This document shows positions 1 through 42,366 of a stretch of DNA of 45,062 bases, piece after piece. The translations under genes and the position numbers were made by a program. Numbering within the stretch: position 1 is the stretch's first letter; each line of letters begins with the position of its first letter. The DNA is from Veterinaerplatzvirus T145P1. The notes under the pieces were generated by a model. That model searched no databases. It was given only the letters and a program-made list of their open reading frames with translations, and was not told the origin of the DNA. The stretch is from sequence record OZ035765.1. One strand, written 5' to 3'.

Positions 1-29
1 ATAATCTGACCCAAACAAAGGAGGATTAA

Positions 30-536: not shown

Positions 537-553
537 CAATAAGAGGGTATAAC

Positions 554-2119: not shown

Positions 2120-2159
2120 CACGAATTGCTAAACGCTAGAGCCACGGATGGCGTATAGT
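2117..2159 (+). promoter_or_regulatory. conserved promoter/operator module
   Basis: TAGCACGAATTGCTA, 22-bp spacer, TATAGT; stop codon of terminase gene is the TAG of the palindrome. Confidence 0.5.
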
Positions 2160-2190
2160 TACTTCACACCAACAAGAGGAGAAAAGGCAA

Positions 2191-2565: not shown

Positions 2566-2585
2566 TCAAAAACCGTGTGATAAAC

Positions 2586-2609
2586 TAGCCCCCACATGGG
2601 GCTTTTTTT
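2586..2609 (+). terminator. rho-independent terminator
   Basis: AGCCCC-CACAT-GGGGCT followed by T7. Confidence 0.6.
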
Positions 2610-2623
2610 ATTGGAGAAATGCA

Positions 2624-3874: not shown

Positions 3875-3939
3875 ATTAATTGGTTACGGTGGGGGTTAAT
3901 GAATGATGAATTTGATGGCTTTTAGTGAGGAGAATTGGG

Positions 3940-5028
3940 ATGTCTAAAATCCGATATGACAACGCAAAGTTTAAGGCAACAATCGACGAGAATGGATTCT
4001 TAGTAGATACGCCAGTTGTCGCACGTCTCGGCGTGCAAGTCTACTACATGGAGGACGGCCGCACTGTTCGGGAGTTTCGCCCAGCCGAGGAGGTTTTCAA
4101 AGATGAATCTCTAGCGAGCTACCAGGGCAAGCCAATGACCATGGACCATGTTTTCGTTAACTCAGAGAATGCTAAAGAGGTGGTGGTAGGATCGGTTGCT
4201 GGAAAGGCGGAGCCATTAGGCAGCTCTGTAGTTGCTCCAATTGTTATTTACGATAGTGCCGCCATCAAGGAAGCCATGGCAGGTAATGCAAAGGAGTTAT
4301 CCGTTGGATACTCATCAGTTATTGATTACACCCCCGGCTGGGGCGACCCTGTTACTGGCGAGTACTTCCTCAAGTCTGAAAGTGAGCTATTCGACGTACC
4401 AGAAGGATGGCAGGAGTTCGACGCAATTCAGCGTGACATTAAAGTGAACCATCTGGCAATGGTGTATCGCGGTCGCGCAGGCATTGCCAAATTGAATATG
4501 GACGGTGAGCAGGAAAACCCGTATACTACTGACGTTGATATCAATAAAGAGGATAAACAGGAAATGACAGTTAAAATTAAACTCGACGGCGCGCAGGAAT
4601 TTGAGGTCGCCCCGGAAATCGCCTCTCACATCGAAGCACTGAACGCAAAGGCTGACACCGCAATCGCAGAGCGCGATTCTCTGAAAGCTAAAGTAGATGC
4701 AATGCCAGCTGAAATCGAAGCTGCCGTTGCTAAAGCGAAAGCTGATGCTGATGCCCTAGCCGCTCTGGTTGCTGTTGCTGCTGAGGCTGGTGTTAAGGCT
4801 GACGGTCTGGATGCTAAAGGCATTAAAGTTGCTTACGTTAAAGAAGTCTCCGGTCTTGATGTTAGTGAGAAGTCTGACGCATACATCGACGCGGCATTCG
4901 ACATTGCCAAAGAATCTGATAAAATGGCTGAAGTACGTAAAGCAACTACTGCTTCCGACAAATCTGACAGCGCCGATGAGCCTAAGAAATTAGACCCACG
5001 TGCTCGTTTAGCTAAAATTAAGAAATAA
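3940..5028 (+). CDS. head morphogenesis / scaffolding protein
   Basis: Start moved to ATG at 3940 (RBS GAGGAG at 3927-3932); C-terminal Ala/Lys-rich coiled-coil region typical of scaffolds. Confidence 0.5.
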   Translation: MSKIRYDNAKFKATIDENGFLVDTPVVARLGVQVYYMEDGRTVREFRPAEEVFKDESLASYQGKPMTMDHVFVNSENAKEVVVGSVAGKAEPLGSSVVAPIVIYDSAAIKEAMAGNAKELSVGYSSVIDYTPGWGDPVTGEYFLKSESELFDVPEGWQEFDAIQRDIKVNHLAMVYRGRAGIAKLNMDGEQENPYTTDVDINKEDKQEMTVKIKLDGAQEFEVAPEIASHIEALNAKADTAIAERDSLKAKVDAMPAEIEAAVAKAKADADALAALVAVAAEAGVKADGLDAKGIKVAYVKEVSGLDVSEKSDAYIDAAFDIAKESDKMAEVRKATTASDKSDSADEPKKLDPRARLAKIKK

Positions 5029-5040
5029 GGAGTTATAAAC

Positions 5041-5562
5041 ATGGCAATTCGTTCCGTAGCACTGGCTGGTATGGTTTCTGATACTTCTCTGTACAACATC
5101 GACGGCGCTTGCGTAGTTGGCGGCGCAGCAGCCATTCCGGTTGGCACTTTTGTTGGCGTTACATCAGCTCAGCCTGTAGATGGTCACAAAGTTGTTGGGC
5201 TTCCTGCTGTGACTGGCACACCAGTTAAACCTTACGGTGTTGTTGTTAAATCTCATTATGAGACTCCAGATGGCACCGCTCGCGTAAATGAAGCGGTTAA
5301 CGTGATGACACACGGTCGAATCTGGGTTCGTACAACTCTAGCGGCTGCGCCAGTTTTTGGTAGTAAGGTTTACGTAAACGCGAGTGGCGTTGTTGCTGCT
5401 AAGGCTGCTACCACTACCTGGGAAACTGGTTTTACATTTGCTGGTGGCTATGTGTCGGCTTACGCTGGCGGCGCTGACCCAATTAAGCAAGGTGAAAGCG
5501 TTGATGGTGCAATGGTTGAGGTTCAGTTGATTCAATCAGCAGACTCAACTGTCGCCGCTTAA
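5041..5562 (+). CDS. head structural protein (decoration-like, putative)
   Basis: 173 aa Gly/Ala/Val-rich; between scaffold and major capsid; strong terminator follows. Confidence 0.4.
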   Translation: MAIRSVALAGMVSDTSLYNIDGACVVGGAAAIPVGTFVGVTSAQPVDGHKVVGLPAVTGTPVKPYGVVVKSHYETPDGTARVNEAVNVMTHGRIWVRTTLAAAPVFGSKVYVNASGVVAAKAATTTWETGFTFAGGYVSAYAGGADPIKQGESVDGAMVEVQLIQSADSTVAA

Positions 5563-5577
5563 TAATTAAGATATATA

Positions 5578-5602
5578 AAGCCTCCTTCGGGAGGTTTTTT
5601 TA
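5578..5602 (+). terminator. rho-independent terminator
   Basis: GCCTCC-TTCG-GGAGG followed by T7. Confidence 0.7.
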
Positions 5603-5607
5603 TACCA

Positions 5608-5635
5608 TTGCGTGGGCTAAAAACTCGTGTATAAT
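5608..5635 (+). promoter_or_regulatory. sigma70-like promoter for major capsid gene
   Basis: TTGCGT, 16-bp spacer, TATAAT; between terminator and capsid RBS. Confidence 0.55.
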
Positions 5636-5673
5636 GAACCCGTAGACACCTAACTGAAAAGGAACAATAAAGA

Positions 5674-6618
5674 ATGGCCATTAAATTTGATGCAGAACAA
5701 GCAAAAATCACCGCTCACCTCGAGCAAATGGGCGTAGAGAAAGCAGATGCCGCTGGTATCTGGACTGTTAAGCAACTGACCGCCAATCTGGCACGAGCTT
5801 ACGAAAAAGAATATGCAGACAACTCCGTTGTTAATATCTTCCCTGTGACCAATGAAATCCCTGGTCATGCGAAATATTTCGAATATCCAGAATTTGACGG
5901 CGTTGGCATTGCTCAGATTATCGCCGATTACTCTGACGACTTGCCGCTGGTTGATGCGTTTATGACCGAGAAACAGGGTAAAGTGTTCCGCTTTGGTAAC
6001 GCGTTCCTGATCTCCACTGACGAAATCAAAGCAGGTGCGGCAACTGGTCAGCCACTGTCGGCTCGCAAACAGGCTCTGGCATTCGAAGCGCATGATAACC
6101 TGCTGGATAAACTGGTATGGTCAGGCTCTACACCACACGGAATTCCTAGCGTGTTCAATCATCCGAACATCAACAACGTTGTTTCTGGTGGTGCGTGGAG
6201 CTCTGCATCTGCCGCCATGACTGATATTACCGCACTTATTGATGCAATCGAGACTGCGACTAATGGCACTCACACCGCAACTGATATCTTGCTGCCTGCC
6301 TCCGCTCGCCGCCTGATGCAAGAACTGGTGCCGAATACATCTATCAGCTACGCCCAGCTGTTCGCTACCAATAACTCTGGTATCACTCTGCGTTATCTTC
6401 AGTTCCTGGATAACTACGACGGAGCAGGCGGTAAAGCAGCATTGGCGTTTGAAAAGAATCCTCTCAACCTTTCGATTGAGATCCCGGAAGCGACCAATGT
6501 ACTTCCAGGACAGCCTAAGGATTTGCACATCCGCTACCCTGTTACCTCCAAAGCAACAGGATTGATTTTATATCGCCCTCTGACGGTGGCCGTAATGAAA
6601 GGTATCACCTTCGCGTGA
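5674..6618 (+). CDS. major capsid protein
   Basis: 314 aa; own sigma70-like promoter (TTGCGT-16-TATAAT), strong RBS and flanking terminators indicate very high expression. Confidence 0.65.
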   Translation: MAIKFDAEQAKITAHLEQMGVEKADAAGIWTVKQLTANLARAYEKEYADNSVVNIFPVTNEIPGHAKYFEYPEFDGVGIAQIIADYSDDLPLVDAFMTEKQGKVFRFGNAFLISTDEIKAGAATGQPLSARKQALAFEAHDNLLDKLVWSGSTPHGIPSVFNHPNINNVVSGGAWSSASAAMTDITALIDAIETATNGTHTATDILLPASARRLMQELVPNTSISYAQLFATNNSGITLRYLQFLDNYDGAGGKAALAFEKNPLNLSIEIPEATNVLPGQPKDLHIRYPVTSKATGLILYRPLTVAVMKGITFA

Positions 6619-6624
6619 TAAATC

Positions 6625-6647
6625 GCCCTCTTCGGAGGGCTTTTTTT
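6625..6647 (+). terminator. rho-independent terminator (after major capsid gene)
   Basis: GCCCTC-TTCG-GAGGGC followed by T7. Confidence 0.7.
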
Positions 6648-6710
6648 ACGTCTGTACCAAATGGATTTGTTGGGTTATAATCACTCAATCAGATAACAAA
6701 GGAGACAAAA

Positions 6711-6956
6711 ATGATTCGTTTAGAACACACTGGCGCTTGCCTTATCGTTTACAGGGGTGAGAAATATTTGCCTGGTGACACTTTCGAGGTTGATGCAATT
6801 TGCGACGGACTCAAGCGTTTAATCGCAGAGGGTAAACTCACCATTGAGGGTGACGCCAAAGCAACCAAACAAATCGCGCAAGAAGTTGTTAGCAAGAAAA
6901 AGCGCAGAGAACCGAAAACCATCTCCGAGGCTGAGACTGGTAACGAGTACAAATAA
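6711..6956 (+). CDS. hypothetical protein
   Basis: 81 aa, RBS AAAGGAG, terminator downstream. Confidence 0.45.
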   Translation: MIRLEHTGACLIVYRGEKYLPGDTFEVDAICDGLKRLIAEGKLTIEGDAKATKQIAQEVVSKKKRREPKTISEAETGNEYK

Positions 6957-6961
6957 TAAAC

Positions 6962-6984
6962 AGGGCGCTTCGGCGTCCTTTATT
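6962..6984 (+). terminator. terminator-like hairpin
   Basis: GGGCGC-TTCG-GCGTCC followed by TTTATT. Confidence 0.45.
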
Positions 6985-6997
6985 GTATGGAGCTAAT

Positions 6998-7399
6998 ATG
7001 AATGATGCAATTTTGGCGTTTATGCGCTCGCTTGTACCTGCTCTCAAAGCGGCGGATGACGAATCAATTAATGTATGGATTGATTTGGCACGTCTATACG
7101 TATGCGAAAGCAAGTTTGGAGCAGACAAAGACAAGGCTGTCGGCCTTTATGCATTGCACCTGATGCTTGCTGATGGCGCGTTTAAAGGCGAGAACGAAGG
7201 TCTGGAAACATACAGTCGTAGAATGGCAAGTTACGCACTGAGCGGTGAATTCTCTATCACATATGATACCCAATCAGCAGCATCTGGTGATTTATCATCT
7301 TCTCAATTCGGTAGGATGTATAAGGCGCTTCTTCGCAAGAAAGGCGGTGGATTTGGATTAATTACTTCCGCTACTGGCGGTGGGTGCGGTTGCCGATGA
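6998..7399 (+). CDS. head-tail connector/adaptor protein (putative)
   Basis: Start moved to ATG 6998 (GGAG 5 nt upstream); position between capsid and tail genes. Confidence 0.35.
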   Translation: MNDAILAFMRSLVPALKAADDESINVWIDLARLYVCESKFGADKDKAVGLYALHLMLADGAFKGENEGLETYSRRMASYALSGEFSITYDTQSAASGDLSSSQFGRMYKALLRKKGGGFGLITSATGGGCGCR

Positions 7400-7767
7400 A
7401 CTACAGCGAAATAGAATCAATCACTCGCGAAGGAATTAACTTCTTTAGTGATGCCAATGGCGTTTACGAGATGAGTACTGGCGCTGGATATGTTGAAATC
7501 GTTAACGGCGTTGAGGTTGAGTTTCCTTCGCAAACATTCCAGCTAAAGGGTTTGGTTCGAGAAATCAAGACTCGCGATATAGATGGTGAGTTTATCCATT
7601 TTGGCGATAAGCGCGGAATCTTCACAGCTCAGGTGGAAATTAAGCAGGGTTATCAGATTAAAGTTGATGGTGAGACTTTTGTTGTTGTTGATCCGCGACC
7701 AGTTAAACCAACTGGTACAGTGGTTGGTTACAGACCGATTCTTCGTAGGGTGGCTACTTATGGCTAG
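7396..7767 (+). CDS. head closure protein (putative)
   Basis: ATGA overlap with the upstream stop; position-based. Confidence 0.35.
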   Translation: MNYSEIESITREGINFFSDANGVYEMSTGAGYVEIVNGVEVEFPSQTFQLKGLVREIKTRDIDGEFIHFGDKRGIFTAQVEIKQGYQIKVDGETFVVVDPRPVKPTGTVVGYRPILRRVATYG

Positions 7768-8197
7768 AAATATTGGAAGCGTCGCTACGTTTGAGAAATC
7801 TATTACTGACTGGATTGACAGAGCAGATAAGGGATTTGAAATTGTGGTCGCTAATACGGTCACTAAAACAGCCAACGCAATTGTGGACCTTTCCCCTGTC
7901 GACACTGGTAGATTCAAGGCTAACTGGCAAATTACCGCAAACTCACCAGCCCAGCAGTCTCTGAATGAGTACGATCAGACTGGCGGGCAGACAAAAACAT
8001 ATCTCGCCAGACAAGCCAGAGCAGTAGCCAATTCAAAAGCCACTAGTGTTATTTATATTACTAACCGACTTGATTACGCAGCCGACCTTGAGTATGGAGC
8101 TTCAAATCAGGCTCCGTCTGGTGTTTTGGGCGTGGTGCAAGCGAGGCTTGGCAGGTATTTTCAAGAAGCAGTGGAGGAGGCTCGTCGTGCAATATGA
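7760..8197 (+). CDS. neck / tail completion protein (putative)
   Basis: Start moved to ATG 7760 (track ORF has a long in-frame N-terminal extension overlapping the previous gene); DTGRFKANW motif region. Confidence 0.4.
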   Translation: MARNIGSVATFEKSITDWIDRADKGFEIVVANTVTKTANAIVDLSPVDTGRFKANWQITANSPAQQSLNEYDQTGGQTKTYLARQARAVANSKATSVIYITNRLDYAADLEYGASNQAPSGVLGVVQARLGRYFQEAVEEARRAI

Positions 8198-8588
8198 ATT
8201 ATCATTAGCAGCAAGGAAATTCGTCAACGATTTGTTGGTAAATGAATTTCCGGTCAGATATCCAGTTGCGTGGGAGAATGCTGCATTCACCCCTCCTGCG
8301 GATGGATCAATCTGGCTTAAGTACGACTACACGGAAGTTGATACTGTAACCTACGGATTAAGCAGGAAGTGCAAATACTACGTAGGCATGGTGCAGATTT
8401 CTGTTTTCTTCAGCCCTGGCACTGGAATTGATAGACCCAGACAAATCGCTAATCAATTGGCAGAATCTATCGTTGATGGTACAATGCTTGACAGCGGGAC
8501 CATTTATGAGTCTGGAGTTGTTAACCCGGTTATCAAATCCAAATCTGGGTGGTTTATCCCGGTTCGTTTTTATGTTCGTCTAGACTAA
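8187..8588 (+). CDS. tail terminator-like protein (putative)
   Basis: Probable GTG start at 8187 after GGAGGAGG; directly precedes major tail gene. Confidence 0.35.
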   Translation: MQYELSLAARKFVNDLLVNEFPVRYPVAWENAAFTPPADGSIWLKYDYTEVDTVTYGLSRKCKYYVGMVQISVFFSPGTGIDRPRQIANQLAESIVDGTMLDSGTIYESGVVNPVIKSKSGWFIPVRFYVRLD

Positions 8589-8603
8589 CAAAAGGAAAAA
8601 TAA

Positions 8604-9260
8604 ATGGCTCATCTCAGCAATGGCACGCAGGTCTTCGTAGAAGGCTCTCGCGGAGCTGCAATTGACGTAACTGCAATTTCTAACGCAGTTACCCCTGTTT
8701 TAACTGTATCTGACGCCTCTGGCTTGGTCGTTGGTGATTACTTGCTTTTCACCTCTTCTGCCTCAACTCTTCTGGCTGACAAGCAGGTTCGCGTAACTGC
8801 AATCACTGATACGTCAGTAACCGTTGAAGGTATTGATACCTCCAGCACCACTAAGTTCCCTGCTGGTCTAACTGGTGAAGTTGTTAAAATTACTTCATGG
8901 TTCGAGGTTCCTTGTGTTCAGGACGTATCTACTGACGGCGGCGAACAGCAGTTCGTTAACTTCCAGTGCTTGTCAGATGACCGCGAACAGCAGATTCCGA
9001 CTTATAAATCTGCCGTAACAAACACCTTCACCTTTGCTCACGAGTACACTAACCCGGTTTATCCGGTTCTGCGTAACTACGACGAGTCTGGCCAGGTTGT
9101 TGCGATTCGTCTGTTCGTACCTCGCGCTCAGGAAATGCGTTTACAGTCCGGCACTATCGCTTTCAACGACACCCCTACCATTGGTGTTAACGAAATCGAA
9201 ACGGTATCCATCGCAGTATCCATTCGTGGGCGCCTATCCTCTGTGGCAGCAGAAGTTTAA
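8604..9260 (+). CDS. major tail protein
   Basis: 218 aa, Ser/Thr/Val-rich; sits before chaperone pair and tape measure; terminator follows. Confidence 0.6.
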   Translation: MAHLSNGTQVFVEGSRGAAIDVTAISNAVTPVLTVSDASGLVVGDYLLFTSSASTLLADKQVRVTAITDTSVTVEGIDTSSTTKFPAGLTGEVVKITSWFEVPCVQDVSTDGGEQQFVNFQCLSDDREQQIPTYKSAVTNTFTFAHEYTNPVYPVLRNYDESGQVVAIRLFVPRAQEMRLQSGTIAFNDTPTIGVNEIETVSIAVSIRGRLSSVAAEV

Positions 9261-9266
9261 AGCACA

Positions 9267-9289
9267 AACCCTCTTAGGAGGGTTTTTTA
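9267..9289 (+). terminator. rho-independent terminator (after major tail gene)
   Basis: AACCCTC-TTAG-GAGGGTT followed by T5. Confidence 0.65.
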
Positions 9290-9294
9290 TTGCA

Positions 9295-9337
9295 TAGCAC
9301 TTTTTGCTAAAGCGGTTATTCAACTTTGCTGTATAGT
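9295..9337 (+). promoter_or_regulatory. conserved promoter/operator module
   Basis: TAGCACTTTTTGCTA, 22 bp, TATAGT, leader TACCTCATCGAAACGA. Confidence 0.5.
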
Positions 9338-9370
9338 TACCTCATCGAAACGAAATGAGAGATTAAAGAA

Positions 9371-9619
9371 ATGAATAACGTTAAAAACATCATCAAGCTC
9401 GCTGCGGTTCTGTTTGCTTTTTATGCGGTAGTTCAGATTGTAGACCCAACAGGTGAGGCTGATGCCAATATCAAGGCAAACAAATATACTGTTGAATTTG
9501 CTAAGGCTGAGCGAGCATGTCAGGAGCTTGTAGGTGGCAAAGTTGACCAAATCATGAAATACGGCAAAGAGGTTTGTAAGGACTCGGCTGCTAAGATTGC
9601 AAAAGAAAACACTAAGTAA
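9371..9619 (+). CDS. hypothetical small membrane/secreted protein (moron-like)
   Basis: 82 aa with N-terminal hydrophobic segment; own promoter module at 9295-9337. Confidence 0.5.
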   Translation: MNNVKNIIKLAAVLFAFYAVVQIVDPTGEADANIKANKYTVEFAKAERACQELVGGKVDQIMKYGKEVCKDSAAKIAKENTK

Positions 9620-9657
9620 TAGAATACATACTCACAAACAATAAGAGGATTAACAAA

Positions 9658-9972
9658 ATGGCAAAGTTCAAACTTTCACTGGCAGCACTCCCAGACTTTA
9701 AGCTACCAGTAAAATTTAAGCTGGCTAACGACCAGGATGTAGAGGTTATCTTTACAGTCAAGCATAAGAAAACATCTGAGTTGCAGGAGCTGCTTAGCAA
9801 GGAAGACTTGAGCACAAAAGAGCTTATTATGGCAATTGCTTCTGATTGGGATCTGGAAGAAGAATACAACGAAGATAACGTTAATGAGTTCTCAGACCTT
9901 TTCCCGGCCTCAACTGTTGCACTGACAACTGCTTACATGCAAGCGCTTGCTGGTCAGCGAGTAAAAAACTAA
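9658..9972 (+). CDS. tail assembly chaperone (G-like)
   Basis: 104 aa acidic protein directly upstream of tape measure; ends at slippery AAAAAAC. Confidence 0.6.
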   Translation: MAKFKLSLAALPDFKLPVKFKLANDQDVEVIFTVKHKKTSELQELLSKEDLSTKELIMAIASDWDLEEEYNEDNVNEFSDLFPASTVALTTAYMQALAGQRVKN

Positions 9973-10292
9973 AACGAGCGGTGTATCTACAGTACCAGTC
10001 AGAGCCAACTGATGCCGAACTGGAAGCTATTGGGATGCGCCGCTCTGATTACGAAGATGAAGAGCCTGAGGTTTTACACTTCGACGACAACATGATGAAG
10101 GCGTGGGACATTTATTGTTCAATGGCTACGCAGTGGAGAGTAGGAGCCAATGGAGCTACAGGGTTAGATTACAACGTGCTAAATTTCCTCTTTAGAGTGT
10201 ATAATGTTTCTGAAGAAGAATTGGTACTCAGCGATTTACGCATCCTTGAAGCTAAGGCTCTTGAGATGATGGATAACCTGAGAAAAAAATAA
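9658..10292 (+). CDS. tail assembly chaperone frameshift fusion (G-T-like, -1 shift at 9963-9969)
   Basis: Heptamer A_AAA_AAC sits in the 0 frame at the 3' end of the upstream ORF; the -1 frame continues into the 9981-10292 ORF. Confidence 0.55.
9963..9969 (+). other. -1 programmed ribosomal frameshift slippery heptamer (A_AAA_AAC)
   Basis: Heptamer in the 0 frame immediately before the chaperone stop; -1 frame open through 10292. Confidence 0.6.
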
Positions 10293-10314
10293 CCCGCTTC
10301 GGCGGGTTTTCTAT
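10292..10314 (+). terminator. terminator-like hairpin before tape measure gene
   Basis: ACCCGC-TTCG-GCGGGT followed by TTTC. Confidence 0.45.
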
Positions 10315-10327
10315 TATGGAGGCTTAG

Positions 10328-13309
10328 ATGGCAACAAATGAATTAGCCGGAATCACACTAGCCGTAGATGTCTCGCAAGTAGACAGGGGAACGCAATCCC
10401 TGCAAAAGTTCAGACAGGCAAACCAGCAAGCCGCTTCCGGTATTAGTGAATTCGTCAACGCTGAGCAGGTTGCTAAAAAACAGGCGAGAGATACGGCTCG
10501 TGCACTTTCTGAGCAGCAAGCGTCACTAGCTAAATTGCAAACAGCTATCGACCCAACTGCTGCAAAGTTCCGCAAGCTGCAAGAGGCAGCGGTGGGTCTT
10601 GATAAGGCATTCGCTGCTGGCGTAGTTCCTGACGAGGAATTTTTCCGCTTAGGTGAGGCGCTAGAAACTCAAAACGCAAAACTTGCTCGTTCACGTGCGG
10701 CGCTAACTGAAGAGGGTAGGGCGGCAGCGCAGGCTGCAAAGGATAAGGCAAAAGCAAAGGCTGAAGCGGATAGATTCATTGCATCACTTGAGCGTCAGGC
10801 TCAAGCGGCAACATTGACGCGTGAGGAGTACTTAAAGTTACAAGCGGCCCAGCTTGGCGTTAGTTCTCAGGCAGCACCCATCATTGACAGAATCGCCGAC
10901 GCATCACAGAAGGCAAACACCCAGTTAATTGCTCAGAGTAATGCTTTTCAGAAATCAGGATTAAGCGCCGGGCAATACAAGAATGCCATATCTCAACTAC
11001 CAGCGCAGATTACTGATATTGGCACGTCGCTTGCTGGTGGCATTCCGATTTGGCTTATTGCAATTCAGCAAGGTGGGCAGATCAAGGATGCATTTGGCGG
11101 CATTGGTAACACCTTTAGATTCGCACTTGCAGCCTTAAACCCATTCAATGTAGCTGTTGGTGTTTTGGGTGGGGTACTTGTAGCTCTTGGTGTTGGTGCG
11201 GCTCAGGCTGAAAGTGAATTCAGAGCATTAAACTCTGCCATTGCATTTTCCAACAACTCTACAATCGCATCAATCTCGCAGGTTAGAGAGTTGGTTAGCT
11301 CTGTTTCTGATGCAACAGGTGCCACCAGAGGGCTTGTGACTAGCATCGCAACAAGCCTTATTGAGCAAGGGAACCTTACGCTGACGCAGATTGACAAGAT
11401 TACTAAATCGACCGCAAGATGGGCACAGTTGACAGGCAAGGATGCGAAGGAAATTACTGGTTACTATAACCAGATTGCGAGCGACCCAATACAGGGATTG
11501 GTTGATTTGGATAAGCGCTTTAACTTCCTCACTCAGGGGCAGTTGACGACAATCGAAAACCTGAGCAAGACAAAGGGAGAGGTCGAGGCCGTTACCGCCG
11601 CAATTGACATTTTCAGCAAGTCGCAGGAAGCAAACCTTAACGACATAGCAGCGCAGTTAACTCCACTTGAGTTAGCCTGGAATGACTTTAGAAAGTACAT
11701 CTCTGACATTTGGGATGCAATTAGCCGCAGAACGGTTGGGGCGCTAAACCTGTTTGTTGACGTAATTGCCGGAACAATTGAGCAGATCAGGGTCTTCATT
11801 AACCAGGGTGACGTACTGATTGGTGAATTCGTAATTAGCGCAACGCAAGCGCTGCAAAACATTCCTGGTCTTGATGGTGTTGGTGATGATGTCATAAAGA
11901 GCCAGCAGAAGATTATCGATGCAGCCAAGAAGCAAAACCTTGAGCTAGAAAAGTCTATCAAGGAGCGCGATGCCAGAATAAGAGAAGGAGAACTTGGTTA
12001 CGTTACTCGCAGAGAAAATCAGAATACCAATGAGCAGTCAGGCACGGATGAGGAGTTTGCAAAAAGGAAGAAGGCGCTTCAGGATGAACTTGATGCGATC
12101 AAGAAGAACAGGAAAGAAGAAAATGGCAGGGTTAAAGAGCAAAGAGACCTTACAATTGGTTACGAATCTGGCGTACTGGCACTTCAGGCTCAACTCAAGG
12201 TTCTTCAGGAAAATAGGGATATTGGCGCAGTAATAAGTAATGAGCGCAAGCAGTATCTTCAGGATGAAGCCAAATTCAGGATTCTTGAGCAGAGGCAGCT
12301 TGATGGTTCAATCACCAAAGAGCAGTCAAGACTTCTTCTTGAGAAGGATAAAGTCCTCGAATTGGCAAGGCAGAAGGCTGAACTTGGAGATCAGATTGTT
12401 TTGCAGGAGCGAGCCAATAAGTTAGCTGAAGATAACCGCAAGAAGATTCTTCAGATTAACAACGAAGCAAAAAACATTGATTTGGGGGCTGGTCTATCTT
12501 CTCGTGAACAACAGAGAGCCAAAGAGATTCAGGCTCTTCAGTCCAATCAGGTTAATGCTGGTGGCGCAATTGATGACGTGGATTTTCAGCAGCTTCTCGA
12601 GGCAAGACGTAACTTTTATGCTCAGGAAGATGCGCTACGTGAAAACTGGCTTGCTGGTGTGAACCAATCCTTTGCTAATTGGGCTGAGAGCGCGAAGGAT
12701 GCATTCTCAATTGCTGGAAGTTTAACCACCACAGTATTTGAAGGCATTACTGACCAGATTACTGACCTTGTAACAACTGGTGAAACTAACTTCAGAGAGT
12801 TCACTGTTAACATCCTTAAACAGATTGCTAAGATTGCGGCTCAGCTTCTTATTGTTAAGGCTATCGAGTCTAGTTTAAGTAGCTTTGGTGGTACTGGTGG
12901 CGCGATTGGCTCTATCGCATCTGCGATTGGTGGTGGATTCGCTAACGGTGGTTATACTGGTAATGGAGGGAAATACCAACCAGCAGGAACCGTACACCGT
13001 GGTGAGTTTGTATTCACAAAAGAAGCAACTAGTCGAATCGGTGTTAAGAACCTTTACGCTCTAATGAAAGGTTACGCAAACGGTGGTGTCGTTGGTGGTC
13101 CCTCTGGCTATGCAAATGGTGGCTTGGTTTCTGGAGGCACAGATGTTAATGTTAGTGGAATTACGGTTAACGTTAATAGTGGAATTGGAAGTGACCCAGA
13201 GCAGGCCAAGGCGCTGCAAAATGGCGTTAAGGCAATTGTAGCTGAAGAGATTTCTCAGTCTTTCCAGCAGGGTGGCAGAGCTTATCAGTACCTGCGCGGA
13301 TTTAACTAA
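10328..13309 (+). CDS. tail tape measure protein
   Basis: 993 aa, long coiled-coil, Gly-rich C-terminus; canonical position. Confidence 0.9.
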   Translation: MATNELAGITLAVDVSQVDRGTQSLQKFRQANQQAASGISEFVNAEQVAKKQARDTARALSEQQASLAKLQTAIDPTAAKFRKLQEAAVGLDKAFAAGVVPDEEFFRLGEALETQNAKLARSRAALTEEGRAAAQAAKDKAKAKAEADRFIASLERQAQAATLTREEYLKLQAAQLGVSSQAAPIIDRIADASQKANTQLIAQSNAFQKSGLSAGQYKNAISQLPAQITDIGTSLAGGIPIWLIAIQQGGQIKDAFGGIGNTFRFALAALNPFNVAVGVLGGVLVALGVGAAQAESEFRALNSAIAFSNNSTIASISQVRELVSSVSDATGATRGLVTSIATSLIEQGNLTLTQIDKITKSTARWAQLTGKDAKEITGYYNQIASDPIQGLVDLDKRFNFLTQGQLTTIENLSKTKGEVEAVTAAIDIFSKSQEANLNDIAAQLTPLELAWNDFRKYISDIWDAISRRTVGALNLFVDVIAGTIEQIRVFINQGDVLIGEFVISATQALQNIPGLDGVGDDVIKSQQKIIDAAKKQNLELEKSIKERDARIREGELGYVTRRENQNTNEQSGTDEEFAKRKKALQDELDAIKKNRKEENGRVKEQRDLTIGYESGVLALQAQLKVLQENRDIGAVISNERKQYLQDEAKFRILEQRQLDGSITKEQSRLLLEKDKVLELARQKAELGDQIVLQERANKLAEDNRKKILQINNEAKNIDLGAGLSSREQQRAKEIQALQSNQVNAGGAIDDVDFQQLLEARRNFYAQEDALRENWLAGVNQSFANWAESAKDAFSIAGSLTTTVFEGITDQITDLVTTGETNFREFTVNILKQIAKIAAQLLIVKAIESSLSSFGGTGGAIGSIASAIGGGFANGGYTGNGGKYQPAGTVHRGEFVFTKEATSRIGVKNLYALMKGYANGGVVGGPSGYANGGLVSGGTDVNVSGITVNVNSGIGSDPEQAKALQNGVKAIVAEEISQSFQQGGRAYQYLRGFN

Positions 13310-13339
13310 TTAACGGGGCTTCGGCCCCTAAGGATTTTT

Positions 13340-13690
13340 ATGGCAATAGATAATTTTACATGGTGTACACAAATCCAGAATGGTGGAGCTGCATTTTCCA
13401 ATACAAACAATGTTCGTATTGTTAGCTTTGGCAATGGTTTTGAGCAAAGAGGAACAGGGGGCTACCGCAGTAATAAGCGCAGCTACCAGATGACCTATAC
13501 AAACAAGGACTGGCGTGAGGTTATGGATTTCTGCTTCAATCACATCATCACACCATTCTTCTGGAAAACACCGCAAGGTGATACTTCTATGTTTGTTATT
13601 CAGCAGGATAGCATTTCAGTTACACCAATTAGTAGCGAAGTTCAGACTGTAAACATGCAATTCGTAGAAGTTTTTAGCTCAATGCGTTAA
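13340..13690 (+). CDS. minor tail protein (lambda M-like)
   Basis: 116 aa immediately after tape measure; canonical order. Confidence 0.8.
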   Translation: MAIDNFTWCTQIQNGGAAFSNTNNVRIVSFGNGFEQRGTGGYRSNKRSYQMTYTNKDWREVMDFCFNHIITPFFWKTPQGDTSMFVIQQDSISVTPISSEVQTVNMQFVEVFSSMR

Positions 13691-13693
13691 ACT

Positions 13694-13715
13694 AAGCCCC
13701 TATATGGGGCTTTTT
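13694..13715 (+). terminator. terminator-like hairpin
   Basis: AGCCCC-TATAT-GGGGCT followed by TTTTGTT. Confidence 0.5.
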
Positions 13716-13728
13716 GTTGGAGAAATAT

Positions 13729-14484
13729 ATGTTAAGTCCAAAGTTTGAAAATCAGTTGCAAAGCCTTTTCCCTGGTGAGATTGTGACACTAATCCAGGTT
13801 GACGGCACGTCCTTCGGGGGTCTCGTTTATTCGTTCCACAATGAGAACATCTCATACACTCCAGAAGAAATCATGCTGGCTCAAATGAATGGCGAGCCAC
13901 TACCAGAGAAAACCATCACATTTCGTGGTGAAGAGTACGGGCCTAGACCATTTGGAATCTCTGGCATAAATATGACTTCTGACGGAAAGGCCAATAAGGT
14001 TACATTAACGGTATCAAACGTTGACCAGCGTATTAGTGCGTTAATCCGAACATACAACGGACTTGTTAAAGCTAAGGTTACAATCTGGATTACTACGCGC
14101 GATAACATCAATGAGGATGGAAGCATTGCTGACGGGGACTATCGCAGATTCGTTTACTTTATTGAGCGACCGAAGCAGGTTGACTACAAGACCGCATCGT
14201 TTGAGCTAAGCAGCCCGATGGATATGGATGGTATTTATATCCCCGCAAGACTTGTTCAGTCTGTTTGCTATTGGGCTTCTAGGGGTTGGTATCGCAGCGG
14301 TAATGGATGCGACTACGCTGGCAATCGTTATTTTGACAAAGACGACAACCCGGTAAGTGATCCGTCTCTAGATTTCTGCGCCGGAACAGTTAATAGCTGT
14401 AAGATTAGATTTGGAGAGAATAACCAGCTTTCATTTGGTGGATGCGCAGCAGCAAGCCTTCAAGCTAAAGCGAATCAGAGCTAA
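13729..14484 (+). CDS. minor tail protein (lambda L-like)
   Basis: Start moved to ATG 13729 (GGAG upstream); canonical order. Confidence 0.8.
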   Translation: MLSPKFENQLQSLFPGEIVTLIQVDGTSFGGLVYSFHNENISYTPEEIMLAQMNGEPLPEKTITFRGEEYGPRPFGISGINMTSDGKANKVTLTVSNVDQRISALIRTYNGLVKAKVTIWITTRDNINEDGSIADGDYRRFVYFIERPKQVDYKTASFELSSPMDMDGIYIPARLVQSVCYWASRGWYRSGNGCDYAGNRYFDKDDNPVSDPSLDFCAGTVNSCKIRFGENNQLSFGGCAAASLQAKANQS

Positions 14485-14493
14485 GGGGGAACA

Positions 14494-15252
14494 ATGTTAA
14501 CACCAAAAGTTAAACTGGAAATCTTCCAGCACGCAAAGGAAGTTTACCCGCATGAGTGCTGTGGAGTTGTTACGCAGAAGGGTCGCGCTCAGAGGTATCA
14601 CAGAATCACCAATGTCAGCAAGGACCCGGAGAATGAGTTTATCCTTGATTCGAATGAGTATGCAGATGTTCTCTTTGAGTTGGCTCACAATGAATCTATT
14701 GTTTACGTAGTTCACTCTCATACGGGTGATGGCGCAACAACAAGGCCTAGCCCAGCGGATATTTGCAGCTGTAATGAATGCGAGGTTCCTTACGTTATTG
14801 TAAGCATCCCAGAGTTGGACATGAGAATCCTTGAGCCATCAACCATGCCTCTGATTGGTCGACCTTGGGGGCTTGGTAGCTTTGATTGCTGGGAGTTGGT
14901 AATGGCGTTCCACAAGAAATACGGCGTCAAACTGAATGACTACCGAGTTAATTACCCGTGGTGGGAGAAGCGGTACAATGAAAATATCTATGACGACAAC
15001 TGGATTAAGGAAGGATTTGAGTTGGTGAAAACTTCAGATATTACTGTTGGCTCAATGATTATGATGCAGGTCCAGAGTGAAGTAACAAACCACGCCGGAA
15101 TCTACATTGGCAACAACAGATTCATTCACCATCTTTATGGTAAAATGAGTTCCATTGATATCTATTCCGATTACTGGCGAGAGCGCACAGTGAGAATCGT
15201 TCGCCATAAGGATTTACCAGAGGATGTAATCTATGACCCAGAAACTGATTGA
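14494..15252 (+). CDS. tail assembly protein (lambda K-like, MPN/JAMM plus NlpC/P60)
   Basis: JAMM-like HSHTGDG...SPAD motif and C-terminal Cys/His NlpC-like residues. Confidence 0.85.
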   Translation: MLTPKVKLEIFQHAKEVYPHECCGVVTQKGRAQRYHRITNVSKDPENEFILDSNEYADVLFELAHNESIVYVVHSHTGDGATTRPSPADICSCNECEVPYVIVSIPELDMRILEPSTMPLIGRPWGLGSFDCWELVMAFHKKYGVKLNDYRVNYPWWEKRYNENIYDDNWIKEGFELVKTSDITVGSMIMMQVQSEVTNHAGIYIGNNRFIHHLYGKMSSIDIYSDYWRERTVRIVRHKDLPEDVIYDPETD

Positions 15253-15805
15253 TATTAAGTTAGGTCTGTCTCTAGGCCGCAAGTTTGGAAAGATTCACCA
15301 GATGGCAGTGAATAGCGTGCCGGAGGCAATGAGAGCACTTTGCTCACAGATTCCTGCATTCAAGGAGTTCATGAATAGCCACGTTGGTCAAAATACAAGG
15401 TACGCCGTGTTCGTTGATGGTAAAAATGTGAACGAGCATCGAATTTCTGATTTTAGTGCCGTTCAGGAGATACGAATCTTGCCAATTCCGCAGGGTCGCA
15501 AGTCAGGCGGCTTGTTTCAGACAATTTTAGGTGCAGCCCTTATCGTTGTTGGTATCTACACTGGCCAGGCTTATCTTGTTGGTGCAGGTATCTCTCTTGC
15601 TGCTGGCGGTGTTGCTCAGTTGCTTTCACCTCAAGCTACTGGGTTGAAAGACCAAAGTAACCAGACAAGTAACAGGGCATCTTACGCATTCGGCTCGGCT
15701 GTAAACACGGTAGCCGCTGGCTACCCGGTTTGCCTACCGTATGGCTATCGAACGGTTGGAGGTTCGGTGTTTAGCGCCGGCTCGTATAGTGAAGACATTG
15801 CTTAA
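15233..15805 (+). CDS. tail assembly protein (lambda I-like)
   Basis: 190 aa, hydrophobic Gly-rich segment; overlaps K-like gene. Confidence 0.75.
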   Translation: MTQKLIDIKLGLSLGRKFGKIHQMAVNSVPEAMRALCSQIPAFKEFMNSHVGQNTRYAVFVDGKNVNEHRISDFSAVQEIRILPIPQGRKSGGLFQTILGAALIVVGIYTGQAYLVGAGISLAAGGVAQLLSPQATGLKDQSNQTSNRASYAFGSAVNTVAAGYPVCLPYGYRTVGGSVFSAGSYSEDIA

Positions 15806-15812
15806 ATACCAT

Positions 15813-15836
15813 ACCCGCCTAGTGCGGGTTTTTTAT
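15813..15836 (+). terminator. rho-independent terminator between I-like and J-like genes
   Basis: ACCCGC-CTAGT-GCGGGT followed by T6. Confidence 0.6.
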
Positions 15837-15885
15837 TTAGTGTAGAATGGCACAAATGATCAAAACAAACATGAGGCTTTGTGAT

Positions 15886-18800
15886 ATGGCTGAAGATATT
15901 AAGATTTATGGTGCTAAGGGTGGTAGCCAGAAGCAGCACCAACCAGTGGAACAAGAAGACAACCTGATTTCATTAAACAAGGTCAAGGTATTACTTGCGG
16001 TTGCTGACGGCGAGGTTGACCCTAACTTCTCAATGAAAGATTTATACCTTGCTGACGTTCCGGTGCAAAACCAGGATGGTAGCTACAACTATGATGGTGT
16101 TCGCGCTGAGTTCCGTGCTGGCACGCAGTATCAGGACTATATCGCCGGGCTTGACGGTGCTAACTCAGAGATTCAGGCATCCAGAGAAATCAAGAACGAT
16201 ACCCCGTACATCATTGCGGTTAACAATACTCAGCTTTCAGCAATTCGAGTTAAGCTATTTTGGCCTCGACTGGTTAAGCAAGAAAACAACGGAGACCTGA
16301 ACGGAACAACTTGCGAGTACGCAATTGACCTTTCTGTTAATGGTGGTGCTTACCAGGAATACACTCGCGGAGTTGCTAACGGCAAGACAACTACAGGTTA
16401 CGACCGAAGCATTCGCGTAAACCTTCCGGCAGAGTTTGATAGTGCGCTTGTTCGCATCCGTAAGATTACAGCTGACTCAACGAGCAGCACACTGGTTAAC
16501 GGAATGCAGATTACAACCTATCAGGAAGTAATCGACGCCAAATTCCGCTACCCGCTTACGGCTCTGGTCTATGTTGAGTTTGGTTCTGACTTGTTCCCTA
16601 ACGGCATCCCGACAATCTCAATAAAGAAGCGTTGGAAGCTAATTCAGGTACCGACAAACTACGACCCGGAGACAAGGACTTACAGCGGGACATGGAATGG
16701 CTTATTCAAGATGGCATGGTCGAATAACCCGGCATGGGTTCTCTATGACCTGGTGACAAACCGACGCTATGGGCTTGACCAGCGAGAGTTGGGTGTAGAG
16801 ATTGATAAATGGGGCTTGTATGAAGCCGCGCAATTCTGTGACCAGATGGTTCCAGATGGTAAGGGTGGTTTAGAGCCGCGTTACCTTTGCGATATGGTTG
16901 TGCAAAACAAGGTTGAGGCCTACACGCTAATTCGTGATATCTGCTCAATCTTCCGTGGTCTGACTTTCTATGACGGTGAAAAGATTGGTATCGTGGTTGA
17001 TAAGCCTCGCAACCCATCTTACATCTTCACCAATGATAACGTTGTAAACGGATTGTTCAGTCGAACCTTTGCCAGTGATAAAAGCCTTTACACCACGGCA
17101 AACGTCCAGTTTGATGATGTAGAGAACAACTATCAACAGGATGTTGAGCCGGTATTTGAATTAGAGGCAACTCGTCGTTTTGGATTTAACCCTGTAGATT
17201 TAACTGCGATTGGATGCACTCGCAGAAGTGAAGCAAACAGACGTGGCAGATGGCTCCTGAAAACAAACCTGAGAAGCGAAACTATCAGCTTCACTACTGG
17301 GTTGGAAGGTATGATTCCGATGATTGGCGAGGTAATTGCGGTCAATGACGCTGCATGGTCTAGCAACTATCAGTTAAACCTTTCCGGTCGTATTGAGTCA
17401 GTTCAGGGGTTGCAGGTTTTTACCCCTTTTAAAGTTGACGCAGCGCCTGGTGACAGAATTCTTCTGAACAAGCCAGACGGAAGTCCAGAGGCAAGAACTA
17501 TTGCCAGCGTTTCGGAGGATGGAAGAACAATCAACCTTAACACTGCTTTTAGTTTTGTAGCTCAACCTGACACTGTTTTCGCAATCGATAAGGATAATCT
17601 CGCGCTTCAACAGTATGTTGTGACCGGGATTCAAAAAGCAGATTCTGATGGCTCTGATTCATTCCAGTATACGATTACCGCAGTAGAGTATGACCCGAAC
17701 AAGTATGATGAGATTGATTATGGTGTAAACATTGTTGACCGCCCAACATCAATTGTTGAGCCTGATAGATTGTCGCCACCTGAGAACTTAACAGTATCAA
17801 GCTACAGTAAGGTTGTTCAAGGGTTGTCAGTTGAGACGATGGTTATCGGATGGGATAAAGCTCCATACGCTAAAACATACAATGTTCAGTGGAGGAAAGA
17901 AAATGGCAACTGGATTAACGTACCCAGAACGGCAAGTACAGAGGTTGATATCGAAGGTATTTACGCAGGAATCTATGACGTTAGGGTTCGCAGCGTATCA
18001 GATACTGAAAACGTGTCTTCCTGGTCTGGCATTGTAACCGTATCGCTAACTGGCAAGATTGGTCGCCCATCGGCACCTACTGTTATCACGGCATCAACAG
18101 ATGAGGTATTTGGCATCCGTGTTAAGTGGGGTTTCCCTGAGGGTTCTGGTGACACTGCTTACACTGAACTTCAGCAGGTCCCTGATAATGGTGACGGCAC
18201 TTACAATCCTGATAACGCAAGTTTGCTGACGTTACTGCCTTATCCAGCCTATGAATACTGGCACACGCCAATTCAGCCGGGTAAGGTCATCTGGTATCGC
18301 GCAAGATTGATTGACAGAATCGGCAATACCTCTGATTGGTCTTATTTCGCTAGAGGTATGAGTACTGACGACGCCAACATCATCAACGATTATATCAAGG
18401 TTGATATTGAAGGCTCGGAGGGTTTTAAATACCTAGAGCAGAATGCGATTCAAAAGAACCAGGACATTCAGAATCAAGCCGAGGCAATCATCGAGAACGC
18501 GCTGGCTAATGATGGCGATGTTCGTCGCATGACTAAGGAGAACGGCAAGCGTAAGGCTGAATATGTTCAGGCTGTGAATCTCATAGCTGATGAAACTCAG
18601 GCGCGTGTAGAGGCTCTTACGCAGCTTAAAGCGCAGATTGATGATGAGGTTGTTTCATCGATTACAGAAGTTCAGACTGCATTAGCAACAGAGACAGAAG
18701 CAAGAACTACTGCGGATACGGCTCTATCAGCAAGACTTGGTGAAAACGAGGCTGCACTAAACCAGAAGCTGGACGCTTTTTCTAACGCCACATCGACTGG

Positions 18801-19272: not shown

Positions 19273-19277
19273 TAAAT

Positions 19278-19305
19278 AAAGCCCCTTAATTGGGGCTTTT
19301 CTTTT
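19278..19305. terminator. bidirectional terminator (J gene and convergent minus-strand operon)
   Basis: A-run, AGCCCC-TTAAT-TGGGGCT, T-run. Confidence 0.65.
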
Positions 19306-42322: not shown

Positions 42323-42323
42323 A

Positions 42324-42366
42324 TAGCACGAATTGCTAAACCCGCTCCTGCGGGTTTTGTTATAGT
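42324..42366 (+). promoter_or_regulatory. conserved promoter/operator module
   Basis: TAGCACGAATTGCTA, 22-bp spacer that is itself a terminator-like hairpin, TATAGT. Confidence 0.5.

Follow-up and report, generated by a model that had tools for sequence, protein, structure and literature searches.

In T7, a partial terminator, T-phi, lies just past capsid gene 10 and raises capsid message over that of the downstream tail genes, while downstream promoters top up the later genes. The late operon of lambda is one unit, antiterminated by Q, with ratios set at translation, and to our knowledge it has no internal terminators. Lambdoid genomes also carry morons, cassettes of promoter, gene and terminator inserted between structural genes. 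The late region of T1 has been described as a series of 'transcriptons' (Roberts, Martin and Kropinski 2004, as relayed in PMC11447400), and terminators at head-tail junctions are annotated in the GenBank records of T1, AKS96 and MM01; T1-type terminator features were taken here from NC_005833, KF771239 and MK373793.

The stretch of DNA that we analysed (the window; OZ035765.1, 45,062 nucleotides) belongs to a T1-like siphovirus (Drexlerviridae, Veterinaerplatzvirus) and is 99.9% identical to OZ035767. It shares with T1 its gene order, a 21-nt ATAGCAC...TTGnTAAA repeat and nine terminator junctions (terL, the cement-region gene, capsid, the small post-capsid gene, tail tube, T, M, I and J), although capsid protein identity is only ~50% and the stem sequences are unrelated. 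The two differ in that the overlapping promoter at the M/L junction of T1 is lost in the window lineage, in that a repeat module comes after the tail-tube terminator in the window, where T1 has a promoter directly overlapping it, and in that the window has an extra structural gene, orf124, before the portal terminator. The late-gene signals of hairpin plus T-run are real and conserved family-wide; since their pattern matches the one already described and annotated for T1, the finding is sound but ordinary. What is added here is four promoter-less junctions with obligatory read-through, a hairpin-to-stop distance in the range of ribosome suppression and, in relatives, -10 hexamers past the T-runs of the tail-tube, M and I terminators.

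As in T7, a terminator stands directly past the major capsid gene, but T7 has its own single-subunit polymerase and one such late terminator, whereas the window phage uses host polymerase and has nine. With lambda the window shares, by Pfam, homologous genes for the tail tube, the G/GT frameshift chaperone, the tape measure, M, L, K, I and J; unlike lambda, the window phage showed neither a Q-like gene nor a qut-like arrangement. The end of G (Phage_TAC_4) carries the slippery heptamer A AAA AAC (9963..9969, + strand, read from the sequence), from which the T frame (9981-10292; DUF1799) is entered by a -1 shift, and a joined G-T product is annotated in TLS.

Every late-region hairpin listed in an earlier, sequence-only reading was found, on the + strand and in an intergenic spacer (features below are on this strand unless stated otherwise). 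Before the portal gene, AGCCCCCACATGGGGCT and a run of seven T (2587..2603) are followed by GGAG and an ATG at 2624. The hairpin at 5578..5597 (AAGCCTCCttcgGGAGGTTT with a T-run of 8, one G.U pair, dG -10.0 kcal/mol) is present as proposed, but the gene that it follows (5041-5562), previously placed in a scaffold region, encodes a Phage_cement (decoration) protein by Pfam match, and the scaffold assignment is rejected. The terminator after the major capsid gene (6625..6640; GCCCTCttcgGAGGGC with seven T, dG -9.9 kcal/mol) has the top score in the region; the weakest is that after orf81 (DUF7444) at 6962..6979, which contains a G.U pair, has a weak U-tract (TTTATTGTA) and adjoins the ribosome-binding site of the first connector gene. 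Further terminators follow the major tail-tube gene (9266..9285; AAACCCTCttagGAGGGTTT with a T-run, dG -10.0 kcal/mol) and separate T from the tape measure (10291..10308; U-tract TTTTCTATT, dG -10.4 kcal/mol), the stem of the latter beginning within the TAA stop of T, with GGAGG and the tape-measure ATG at 10328 beyond it. The terminator between the M-like and L-like genes (13694..13712; AAGCCCCtatatGGGGCTT with U-tract TTTTTGTTG, TTTGTTGG) runs directly into GGAG and the L-like start. The hairpins before the tape measure and L-like genes had been read as the weaker ones; both are there, but at -12.2 kcal/mol the M/L hairpin is not weak. The I-like and J-like genes are separated by a terminator at 15813..15835 (hairpin 15813-15829; ACCCGCctagtGCGGGT with six T, dG -9.2 kcal/mol), and a bidirectional terminator (19278..19299) lies between the J-like gene (+) and a convergent membrane-protein gene (19304-20275, - strand). 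One further hairpin, after the tape-measure gene (13314..13329; GGGGCTTCGGCCCC), was rejected as a terminator because it has no T-run, and only 1/12 orthologous junctions carries a terminator; this junction is a homing endonuclease insertion site in JeanPiccard and ACG-M12. The hairpins at 2587-2603, 6962-6979, 19278-19299 and 13314-13329 were absent from the earlier reading.

A strict scan of positions 1-19400 (a perfect stem of 6 bp or longer with no fewer than 4 G:C pairs, followed by 6 or more T in the 9 nt past the last G:C pair) returned seven sense-strand terminators, all intergenic, against a mean of 0.07 +/- 0.25 and a maximum of 1 in 300 dinucleotide shuffles. Under permissive settings the excess is smaller (29 observed, 17.4 +/- 4.2 in shuffles). 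All sites carry their T-run on the sense side; on the other strand only 3/7 score.

Orthologous junctions were then compared among the window and 15 relatives from ~10 genera. Strong terminators recur after cement (13/13), capsid (15/16), orf81 (12/12), tail tube (16/16), T (16/16), M (14/16), I (14/15) and J (10/12), and the terL/portal terminator is present in 12/16 genomes, and in 3/3 of those with orf124. JeanPiccard (Bas02) shares its junctions identically with the window. Annotated terminators of T1, AKS96 and MM01 fall at these sites, the terL/portal one in all three records and the I one in T1 and AKS96. Control junctions had none after portal, protease, conn1, conn2, conn4, G and L (0/16 each), K (0/15) and orf82 (0/5), and few after terS (2/14), conn3 (2/16) and TMP (1/12), though this contrast partly restates where spacers exist, since many control junctions are overlapping genes without a spacer. 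Terminator position is thus conserved across Drexlerviridae while sequence turns over: there are 7-11 versions of the stem per site (capsid 11, tail tube 10, M 11), and U-tracts average 6.2-8 T per 9 nt. At the T/tape-measure junction the stem begins in the stop codon in 14/16 genomes, 94.8% of cells are paired compared with 80.4% after shuffling (0/500 shuffles reach 94.8%), and 4/7 pairs show compensatory changes, with slid controls at 36-66%. The late-region hairpins are very probably functional rho-independent terminators.

We consider it likely that these terminators, acting on host RNA polymerase, cut the head-tail block into short transcription units. Anatomy, enrichment, positional conservation and covariation are observed; from them we infer termination, its efficiency, ribosome gating and promoter activity. 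In the literature searched we found neither mapped transcript ends (3' or 5') nor RNA coverage for T1-like phages.

Four junctions - before the portal, after orf81, T/tape measure and M/L - have a T-run that adjoins the next ribosome-binding site and start, with 5-15 nt between terminator and ribosome-binding site. This leaves no room for a promoter, so that read-through would be obligatory and partial termination at the portal, orf81, T/tape-measure and M/L junctions would be required. Because the T-run abuts the next ribosome-binding site, these four would behave as leaky attenuators, with downstream genes reached via read-through alone. Ribosomes are a likely source of the leak: the hairpins begin -2 to 7 nt past the stop, where a terminating ribosome is known to block folding. 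The gap from stop to hairpin has a median of 5 nt, with 76% of gaps at most 10 nt and 2% at least 30 nt. For lambda tR2, bringing the upstream stop codon from 28 bp to 5 bp away lowers efficiency from ~0.9 to <0.1 (PMC4824070). That reporter, like the window, has a hairpin a few nt past a translated stop codon, but it is synthetic and concerns one terminator, whereas the window sites are known from sequence. The gating argument depends on this one model terminator. Most U-tracts look strong, and alone would predict efficient termination.

Promoter-like elements stand beside several of the remaining terminators. The capsid gene has its own between two terminators (TTGCGT-16-TATAAT, 5608..5635, a consensus match only), identical in JeanPiccard, ACG-M12 and 26174I. 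Upstream of orf81 lies TGTACC-17-TATAAT (6653..6681), an element that Braunvirinae and Rogunavirinae relatives keep and that Tunavirinae and Tempevirinae lack. A candidate with an upstream TG (TTGGCA-17-TACAAT, 8457..8485) lies inside the tail-terminator gene, ~120 nt before the tail-tube start; comparable TG-extended matches at -132 to -143 occur in 11/16 genomes (Vc1, ESP2949 and tiwna among them), over a background of ~0.2-0.4 matches per 280 nt. The tail-tube terminator is followed by a candidate repeat-module promoter (9294..9337; ATAGCACtttTTGCTA, 22 bp, TATAGT) preceding orf82, G and T, which is conserved in Braunvirinae relatives and whose repeat has been described for TLS and T1 (PMC11447400). 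At I/J, the terminator overlaps a family-conserved -10 hexamer (TAGAAT, 15843..15848, 14 nt past the stem), and a -10-like hexamer is found at this distance in 15/15 genomes; the -35 position, TAGTGC (15820-15825), falls within the hairpin loop and 3' arm and matches 2/6. The MTP, M and I junctions together have a -10-like hexamer in 25/38 distinct tails (2.7 expected), and in relatives the hairpin loop often has TTGCGC, 17 bp upstream of the hexamer, whereas the four promoter-less junctions have one in 2/35 tails (1.9 expected by chance). The proposed promoters have poor -35 elements, and the authors of the TLS study, using stricter criteria, could not confirm transcriptons (PMC11447400).

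The sequence-only reading had partial termination setting the ratio of abundant to minor virion proteins. The leak that this calls for would be required at four junctions, but stoichiometry by attenuation alone is not supported by the arrangement of promoter-like elements: the gene for the abundant tail-tube protein comes after four minor connector genes that have no terminator among them, and is preceded by the conserved internal site at 8457-8485. With such elements beside terminators, the late region would consist of promoters and leaky terminators, as in the 'transcripton' picture of T1, and not of a single operon stepping down. The capsid gene would be bracketed by the element at 5608-5635 and the strong terminator at 6625, and the tail-tube gene by 8457-8485 and the strong terminator at 9266, so that their messages would end in a stable 3' hairpin and downstream minor genes would not be raised equally. 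At I/J, where terminator and weak promoter overlap, J would be supplied via read-through and re-initiation.

The hairpins could instead serve chiefly to stabilise 3' ends or to bar processing, long read-through RNAs being cut in AU-rich spacers and trimmed back to them; protein ratios would then follow from segmental mRNA stability and not from termination. Their position behind cement, capsid and tail tube, the most abundant of the products, and the obligatory read-through at four junctions fit this, and stop-codon proximity predicts poor termination during translation of the upstream gene. A stabiliser, however, has no need of a T-run, yet 6-8 T per 9 nt are conserved at every site, on the sense side only, and the sole hairpin without one (13314) is not conserved. 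We therefore regard this account as unlikely. The two functions are compatible with each other.

Somewhat less probable still is that all terminators are efficient and each downstream block has its own promoter, with no need for read-through. T1 is described so, in the account relayed by PMC11447400, and promoter-like elements do lie past or overlap the cement, capsid, tail-tube and I terminators, with another inside the gene upstream of the tail tube. Against this, the four terminators with a ribosome-binding site within 5-15 nt lack a -10-like hexamer, and the genes preceding them have no promoter-like sites scoring at least 10/12, except 4898 and 8457.

The terminators might also be strong barriers overridden late in infection by a phage antiterminator, giving a timing switch of the lambda Q or N kind: free energies between -9 and -13 kcal/mol, along with long T-runs, resemble efficient terminators, and eight in series would otherwise abolish distal expression. 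No antiterminator is annotated in JeanPiccard (a curated relative), T1 or TLS, the Rfam families found are tRNA only, and a scan of ten window proteins gave only an HTH Cro-like regulator, though many small early proteins are without known function; we think this improbable. That the inverted repeats act as DNA, as recombination or module-boundary sites or protein-binding palindromes with an incidental likeness to terminators, is very improbable given their strand asymmetry and the retention of pairing and T-run while stems differ between genera, and the clustering of insertions here in relatives (orf124, homing endonucleases, extra genes in MM01, 2725-N35 and ACG-M12) is expected anyway of morons entering terminator-bounded spacers.

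The gene orf124 (2191-2565) is moron-like in having its own repeat-module promoter, at 2116, a downstream terminator and a patchy presence (3/16 genomes). What sets it apart from morons is that its annotated product is a virion structural protein instead of one for host interaction, and that it uses the conserved terL/portal terminator rather than one brought with it.

In the early region, a module at 42323..42366 had been singled out as a fusion of terminator and promoter. Its hairpin (42338-42357, dG -12.4, TTTTGTT) does fill the 22-bp gap between TTGCTA (42333-42338) and TATAGT (42361-42366), and the module is conserved in AugustePiccard, DTL (with compensatory CCCTC/GAGGG), P817 and Klebsiella phage KLB19. 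It is not a special case, but one instance of a general design: the 22-bp gap is standard in all ~19 modules, and most have an inverted repeat there.

The sequence belongs to Veterinaerplatzvirus, a genus of T1-like siphoviruses within the Drexlerviridae; a 10.5-kb stretch shares 99.9% identity with Veterinaerplatzvirus T145P1 (OZ035767) and matches many Braunvirinae coliphages, JeanPiccard, ACG-M12 and 2725-N35 among them, at 87-92% identity. Packaging, head and tail genes occupy 30-19272 on the + strand, where Pfam identifies the genes for the major capsid protein (5674-6618), the tail tube (8604-9260), the tail chaperone G (9658-9972) with T, its -1 frame extension (9981-10292), the M-like (13340-13690) and I-like (15233-15805) proteins and the J-like tip protein, all on the + strand. 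The gene at 5041-5562 (+), which the sequence-only reading assigned to a scaffold region, is a cement or decoration protein gene by Pfam.

That reading proposed that terminator hairpins punctuate the structural genes between 5578 and 15836. All the hairpins it named exist, on the sense strand and in intergenic spacers, and we find three further terminators that it missed (2587-2603, 6962-6979 and 19278-19299). The nine terminator sites have the G+C-rich stem of some 5-10 bp and the short loop of a rho-independent terminator (here stems of 6-8 bp, loops of 4-6 nt, dG of -9.2 to -13.4 kcal/mol), and every one is intergenic, on the + strand, -2 to 21 nt past a stop codon. Seven carry 6-8 T in the 9 nt past the last G:C pair; the run at 6962 is weaker (TTTATTGTA). 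The hairpin at 13314-13329 was rejected as a terminator, being without a T-run and not conserved.

As an RNAfold scan was too permissive, yielding many long imperfect intragenic hairpins, we used strict criteria (a perfect stem, 6 bp or longer and with four or more G:C pairs, followed by 6 or more T among the 9 nt past the last such pair) together with dinucleotide-preserving shuffles. The + strand from 1 to 19400 contains seven matches, all intergenic, against a mean of 0.07 +/- 0.25 and a maximum of 1 in 300 shuffles, and chance is excluded. When ranked by the d'Aubenton-Carafa formula, used for relative order only, the capsid terminator comes first, that between T and the tape measure gene second weakest, and that after orf81 (the small gene following capsid) last and below threshold. 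The suggestion that the hairpins preceding the tape measure and L genes are weaker thus holds for the first and not for the second. A role of these inverted repeats at the DNA level is contradicted by their strand asymmetry.

The terminators are strongly conserved. We compared the structural regions of 15 relatives (Braunvirinae, Rogunavirinae, Tunavirinae, Tempevirinae, Webervirus, Jhansiroadvirus, Sauletekiovirus and Kyungwonvirus), among which capsid identity falls to about 50%, locating orthologous gene ends by tblastn and searching 75 nt past each stop codon. Strong terminators follow terL at 12 of 16 orthologous junctions (plus 3/3 after the inserted orf124), the cement gene at 13/13, capsid at 15/16, orf81 at 12/12, tail tube and T at 16/16 each, M at 14/16, I at 14/15 and J at 10/12. 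Control junctions are nearly terminator-free, though many are between overlapping genes, so that the contrast in part restates the presence of a spacer: there are none after portal, protease, the connector genes conn1, conn2 and conn4, G and L (0/16 each), K (0/15) or orf82, the gene after tail tube (0/5), and few after conn3 (2/16), tape measure (1/12) and terS (2/14). Since each conserved site has 7-11 distinct hairpin sequences, it is position and shape that persist while the bases change. Only the T/tape measure stem could be aligned well; there 94.8% of cells are paired, as against 80.4% when shuffled (0 of 500 shuffles reach 94.8%) and 36-66% in slid controls, with compensatory changes in four of seven pairs. 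The tail-tube and I/J stems are not alignable between genera, having been replaced, not mutated. Were the hairpins there solely to stabilise transcripts, the conserved, sense-specific T-runs would be left unexplained. The late-region terminators are a real feature, correctly seen in the sequence-only reading.

The pattern is no discovery, having been annotated for T1-like phages since 2004. In the T1 RefSeq record the very same nine late junctions are annotated with rho-independent terminators, each matched by one in the window; the records of AKS96 and MM01 agree, and in AKS96 an annotated promoter overlaps the tail-tube terminator. For SU57, a phage of the same genus, ARNold terminators have been listed, with one noted ahead of the gene for the tail spike, and Niu et al. 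gave 18-21 terminators per Rogunavirus genome. Our literature searches found no transcript-level data (RNA-seq, Term-seq or start sites) on T1-like phages; the one Drexlerviridae-related RNA-seq paper retrieved concerned a T5-like phage. What the present analysis contributes is comparative confirmation and testable refinements, namely the ribosome-proximal placement, terminator-embedded promoters and possible recycling coupling that we infer below.

The junctions sort into three classes by what follows the terminator. In class A a long spacer holds a promoter-like element 3' of the terminator, recognised by consensus match only: TTGCGT-16-TATAAT between cement and capsid (5608-5635, +), TGTACC-17-TATAAT between capsid and orf81 (6653-6681, +), and between tail tube and orf82 a repeat module, ATAGCAC..TTGCTA, 22 bp and TATAGT (9294-9337, +). 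Of the late-region sites, TTGGCA-17-TACAAT with an upstream TG (8457-8485, +) is the most sigma-70-like; it falls inside the gene for the tail terminator, some 120 nt ahead of where the tail-tube gene starts, and 11 of 16 genomes, distant ones included, have comparable sites in this position. With promoter-like elements before them and strong terminators after them, the genes for the two most abundant proteins, capsid and tail tube, are each bracketed.

Class B is the I/J junction, with its terminator at 15813-15836, where a consensus match to a -10 hexamer, TAGAAT (15843), lies 14 nt past the stem; all 15 genomes have a -10-like hexamer at this distance. The probable start of the J-like gene is ATG 15886, preceded by a GAGG ribosome-binding site and in agreement with the starts annotated some 80 nt past the I stop in T1, AKS96, 2725-N35, MM01 and others; the first ATG of the reading frame (15847), preferred earlier, was rejected. 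This start leaves an 80-nt spacer containing both terminator and -10-like hexamer. In T1, pSf-2, tiwna, BubbaBully and TLS, a TTGCGC in the I/J hairpin loop precedes TATAAT or TACAAT by exactly 17 bp, and the genera of these phages have the same composite at the M and tail-tube junctions. A -10 hexamer is present in 25 of the 38 distinct tails from the tail-tube, M and I junctions (2.7 +/- 1.5 expected), while other junctions are at chance level (2/35 and 1/36).

At the four class C junctions (before portal, after orf81, between T and tape measure and, in this lineage, between M and L) the T-run leads straight into GGAG and a start codon, and no promoter-like element is present. These spacers cannot fit a promoter, so the downstream genes need read-through. 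It is here that a pure transcripton model, in which every unit of the late region runs from its own promoter to an efficient terminator, would fail. The proposal that partial termination sets virion protein stoichiometry is upheld in part: attenuation is needed at class C sites, and promoters take a share in the work.

How might strong-looking terminators be read through? Under a lambda-type scheme, polymerase would be made resistant to termination across one late operon, but the Q- or N-like gene and site of such a system were found neither in the curated relatives, where no candidate gene is annotated, nor among the ten window proteins scanned, and an Rfam scan of the window matched a tRNA as its only RNA family. 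Antitermination keeps a small probability, since many small early proteins have no known function and the scan covered part of them. Placement of the hairpins suggests a role for the ribosome. Over 127 sites the gap from stop codon to hairpin has a median of 5 nt, and is at most 10 nt in 76%, at most 20 nt in 94% and at least 30 nt in 2%, in keeping with the 10-15 nt or so from a translated stop expected of a ribosome-gated attenuator. T/tape measure takes this furthest: in 14 of 16 genomes its stem begins within the TAA stop codon. Lambda tR2 in E. coli terminates with an efficiency of about 0.9 when at least 30 bp separate it from the stop, but of less than 0.1 when the distance is 5 bp; the ribosome, as it terminates, prevents the hairpin from folding, and termination returns once translation is removed (PMC4824070). 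Given this precedent, strong-looking terminators close to a stop codon can leak, and we infer that the phage terminators may be gated by translation of the upstream gene.

At the end of G, the sequence contains a slippery heptamer, A AAA AAC (9963-9969), at which ribosomes would shift -1 into the T frame. T is reached only through this shift, and its stop codon overlaps the next terminator stem. Going further, the late hairpins might be composite relay elements, a reading to which we attach little probability. Throughout the Drexlerviridae, the terminator after tail tube, M or I would be built into a promoter, with a -35-like TTGCGC in the hairpin loop, the U-tract as spacer and the -10 hexamer 13-14 nt past the stem. 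A polymerase releasing its RNA at the U-tract would then be positioned at the following promoter already and could start anew through post-termination recycling, as shown for polymerase elsewhere (PMC6978380, PMC10372574), which would separate transcripts without loss of polymerase flux. At T/tape measure, a stem that starts in the T stop could be masked only by a ribosome that had made the -1 shift from G to T, and the output of tape-measure mRNA would scale with that of the GT chaperone.

If the terminators work as proposed, T1-like phages would set virion protein ratios very differently from lambda despite homologous tail genes, using many short host-polymerase units with leaky ends where lambda has one antiterminated operon tuned by translation. 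The map should serve annotation and engineering of the Drexlerviridae, common among therapy phages and in the BASEL collection, and some 130 natural terminator variants at defined distances from stop codons form a ready set.

The early region offers a parallel, its module design being mirrored by the late-junction composites. One early module had been described as using a terminator hairpin as its 22-bp spacer; the gap from TTGCTA to TATAGT is indeed taken up by a hairpin, at 42338-42357, which is kept in AugustePiccard, DTL (with one compensatory stem change), P817 and a Klebsiella Vilniusvirus. The 22-bp gap is, however, standard in all of the approximately 19 module copies (25 pattern matches against 4.8 expected) and most spacers hold an inverted repeat, so this fusion is one case of a general design. 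The 40 nt past TTGNTA have a mean dG of -8.9, against -4.8 for random 40-mers, with z below -1.5 in 11 of 19 spacers and a mean z of -2.2 relative to shuffles; the minus-strand module at 38039 also contains a GC hairpin.

The module reads ATAGCACnnnTTGCTAAA, 22 bp, TATAGT or TATAAT, about 6 nt and ATCGAAACGA, and its copies are oriented with transcription (2116, 9294, 20595(-), 22881, 27767(-), 28246, 30742, 31583, 33693, 37252(-), 38039(-), 39220(-), 40489, 40786, 41796, 42323, 42833 and 43700). The repeat has been reported for TLS and T1. TTGCTA is probably not a standard -35, since a gap of 22 bp exceeds that of a normal -35/-10 pair. Many spacers have inverted repeats of differing sequence that put the -10 hexamer in a potential hairpin loop (dG -12 to -19), as at 40786-40840, 42833-42890, 37252-37200(-), 30742-30800 and 41796-41850; since the stems vary from module to module, one operator common to them all is improbable. 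In Tunavirinae and Tempevirinae the repeat stands inverted downstream of the -10 after the tail-tube terminator, and also forward, directly before the J start codon (ATAGCACAAAAAGGTAAAcatcATG), as in T1 (18797-18870 and 24995-25042 of its sequence), tiwna, pSf-2, BubbaBully and TLS. The repeat is thus not tied to one position relative to a promoter, and a protein-binding site would fit better than a core promoter element. A Cro-like HTH transcriptional regulator (27754-28233, -; phrog_2856, E = 2e-82), lying between primase and helicase genes as does T1 gp23, is a candidate binder. The tape-measure/M spacer of the window (13310-13339) has a GC hairpin without a T-run; at this spot JeanPiccard (phage Bas02) and ACG-M12 have a repeat module with a spacer hairpin and a homing endonuclease gene (13232-13302 and 13835-13905 in the relatives' sequences L001 and L008).

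Three further loci deserve mention. The inserted gene before portal, orf124 (2191-2565; virion structural protein family phrog_14592), is confined to 3 of 16 genomes, has a repeat-module promoter of its own at 2116 and lies before the conserved terL/portal terminator, and so resembles a moron-type insertion. Upstream of the early hairpin module, the ORF at 41993-42322 matches only positions 151-228 of 235 of a P-loop NTPase family profile, its C-terminal third; relatives have a full-length gene there, and the ORF looks like a truncated remnant. Finally, a tRNA gene (44705-44778; Rfam, 66 bits) lies upstream of the small terminase gene, at a position where relatives have an annotated tRNA-Arg (AGA).
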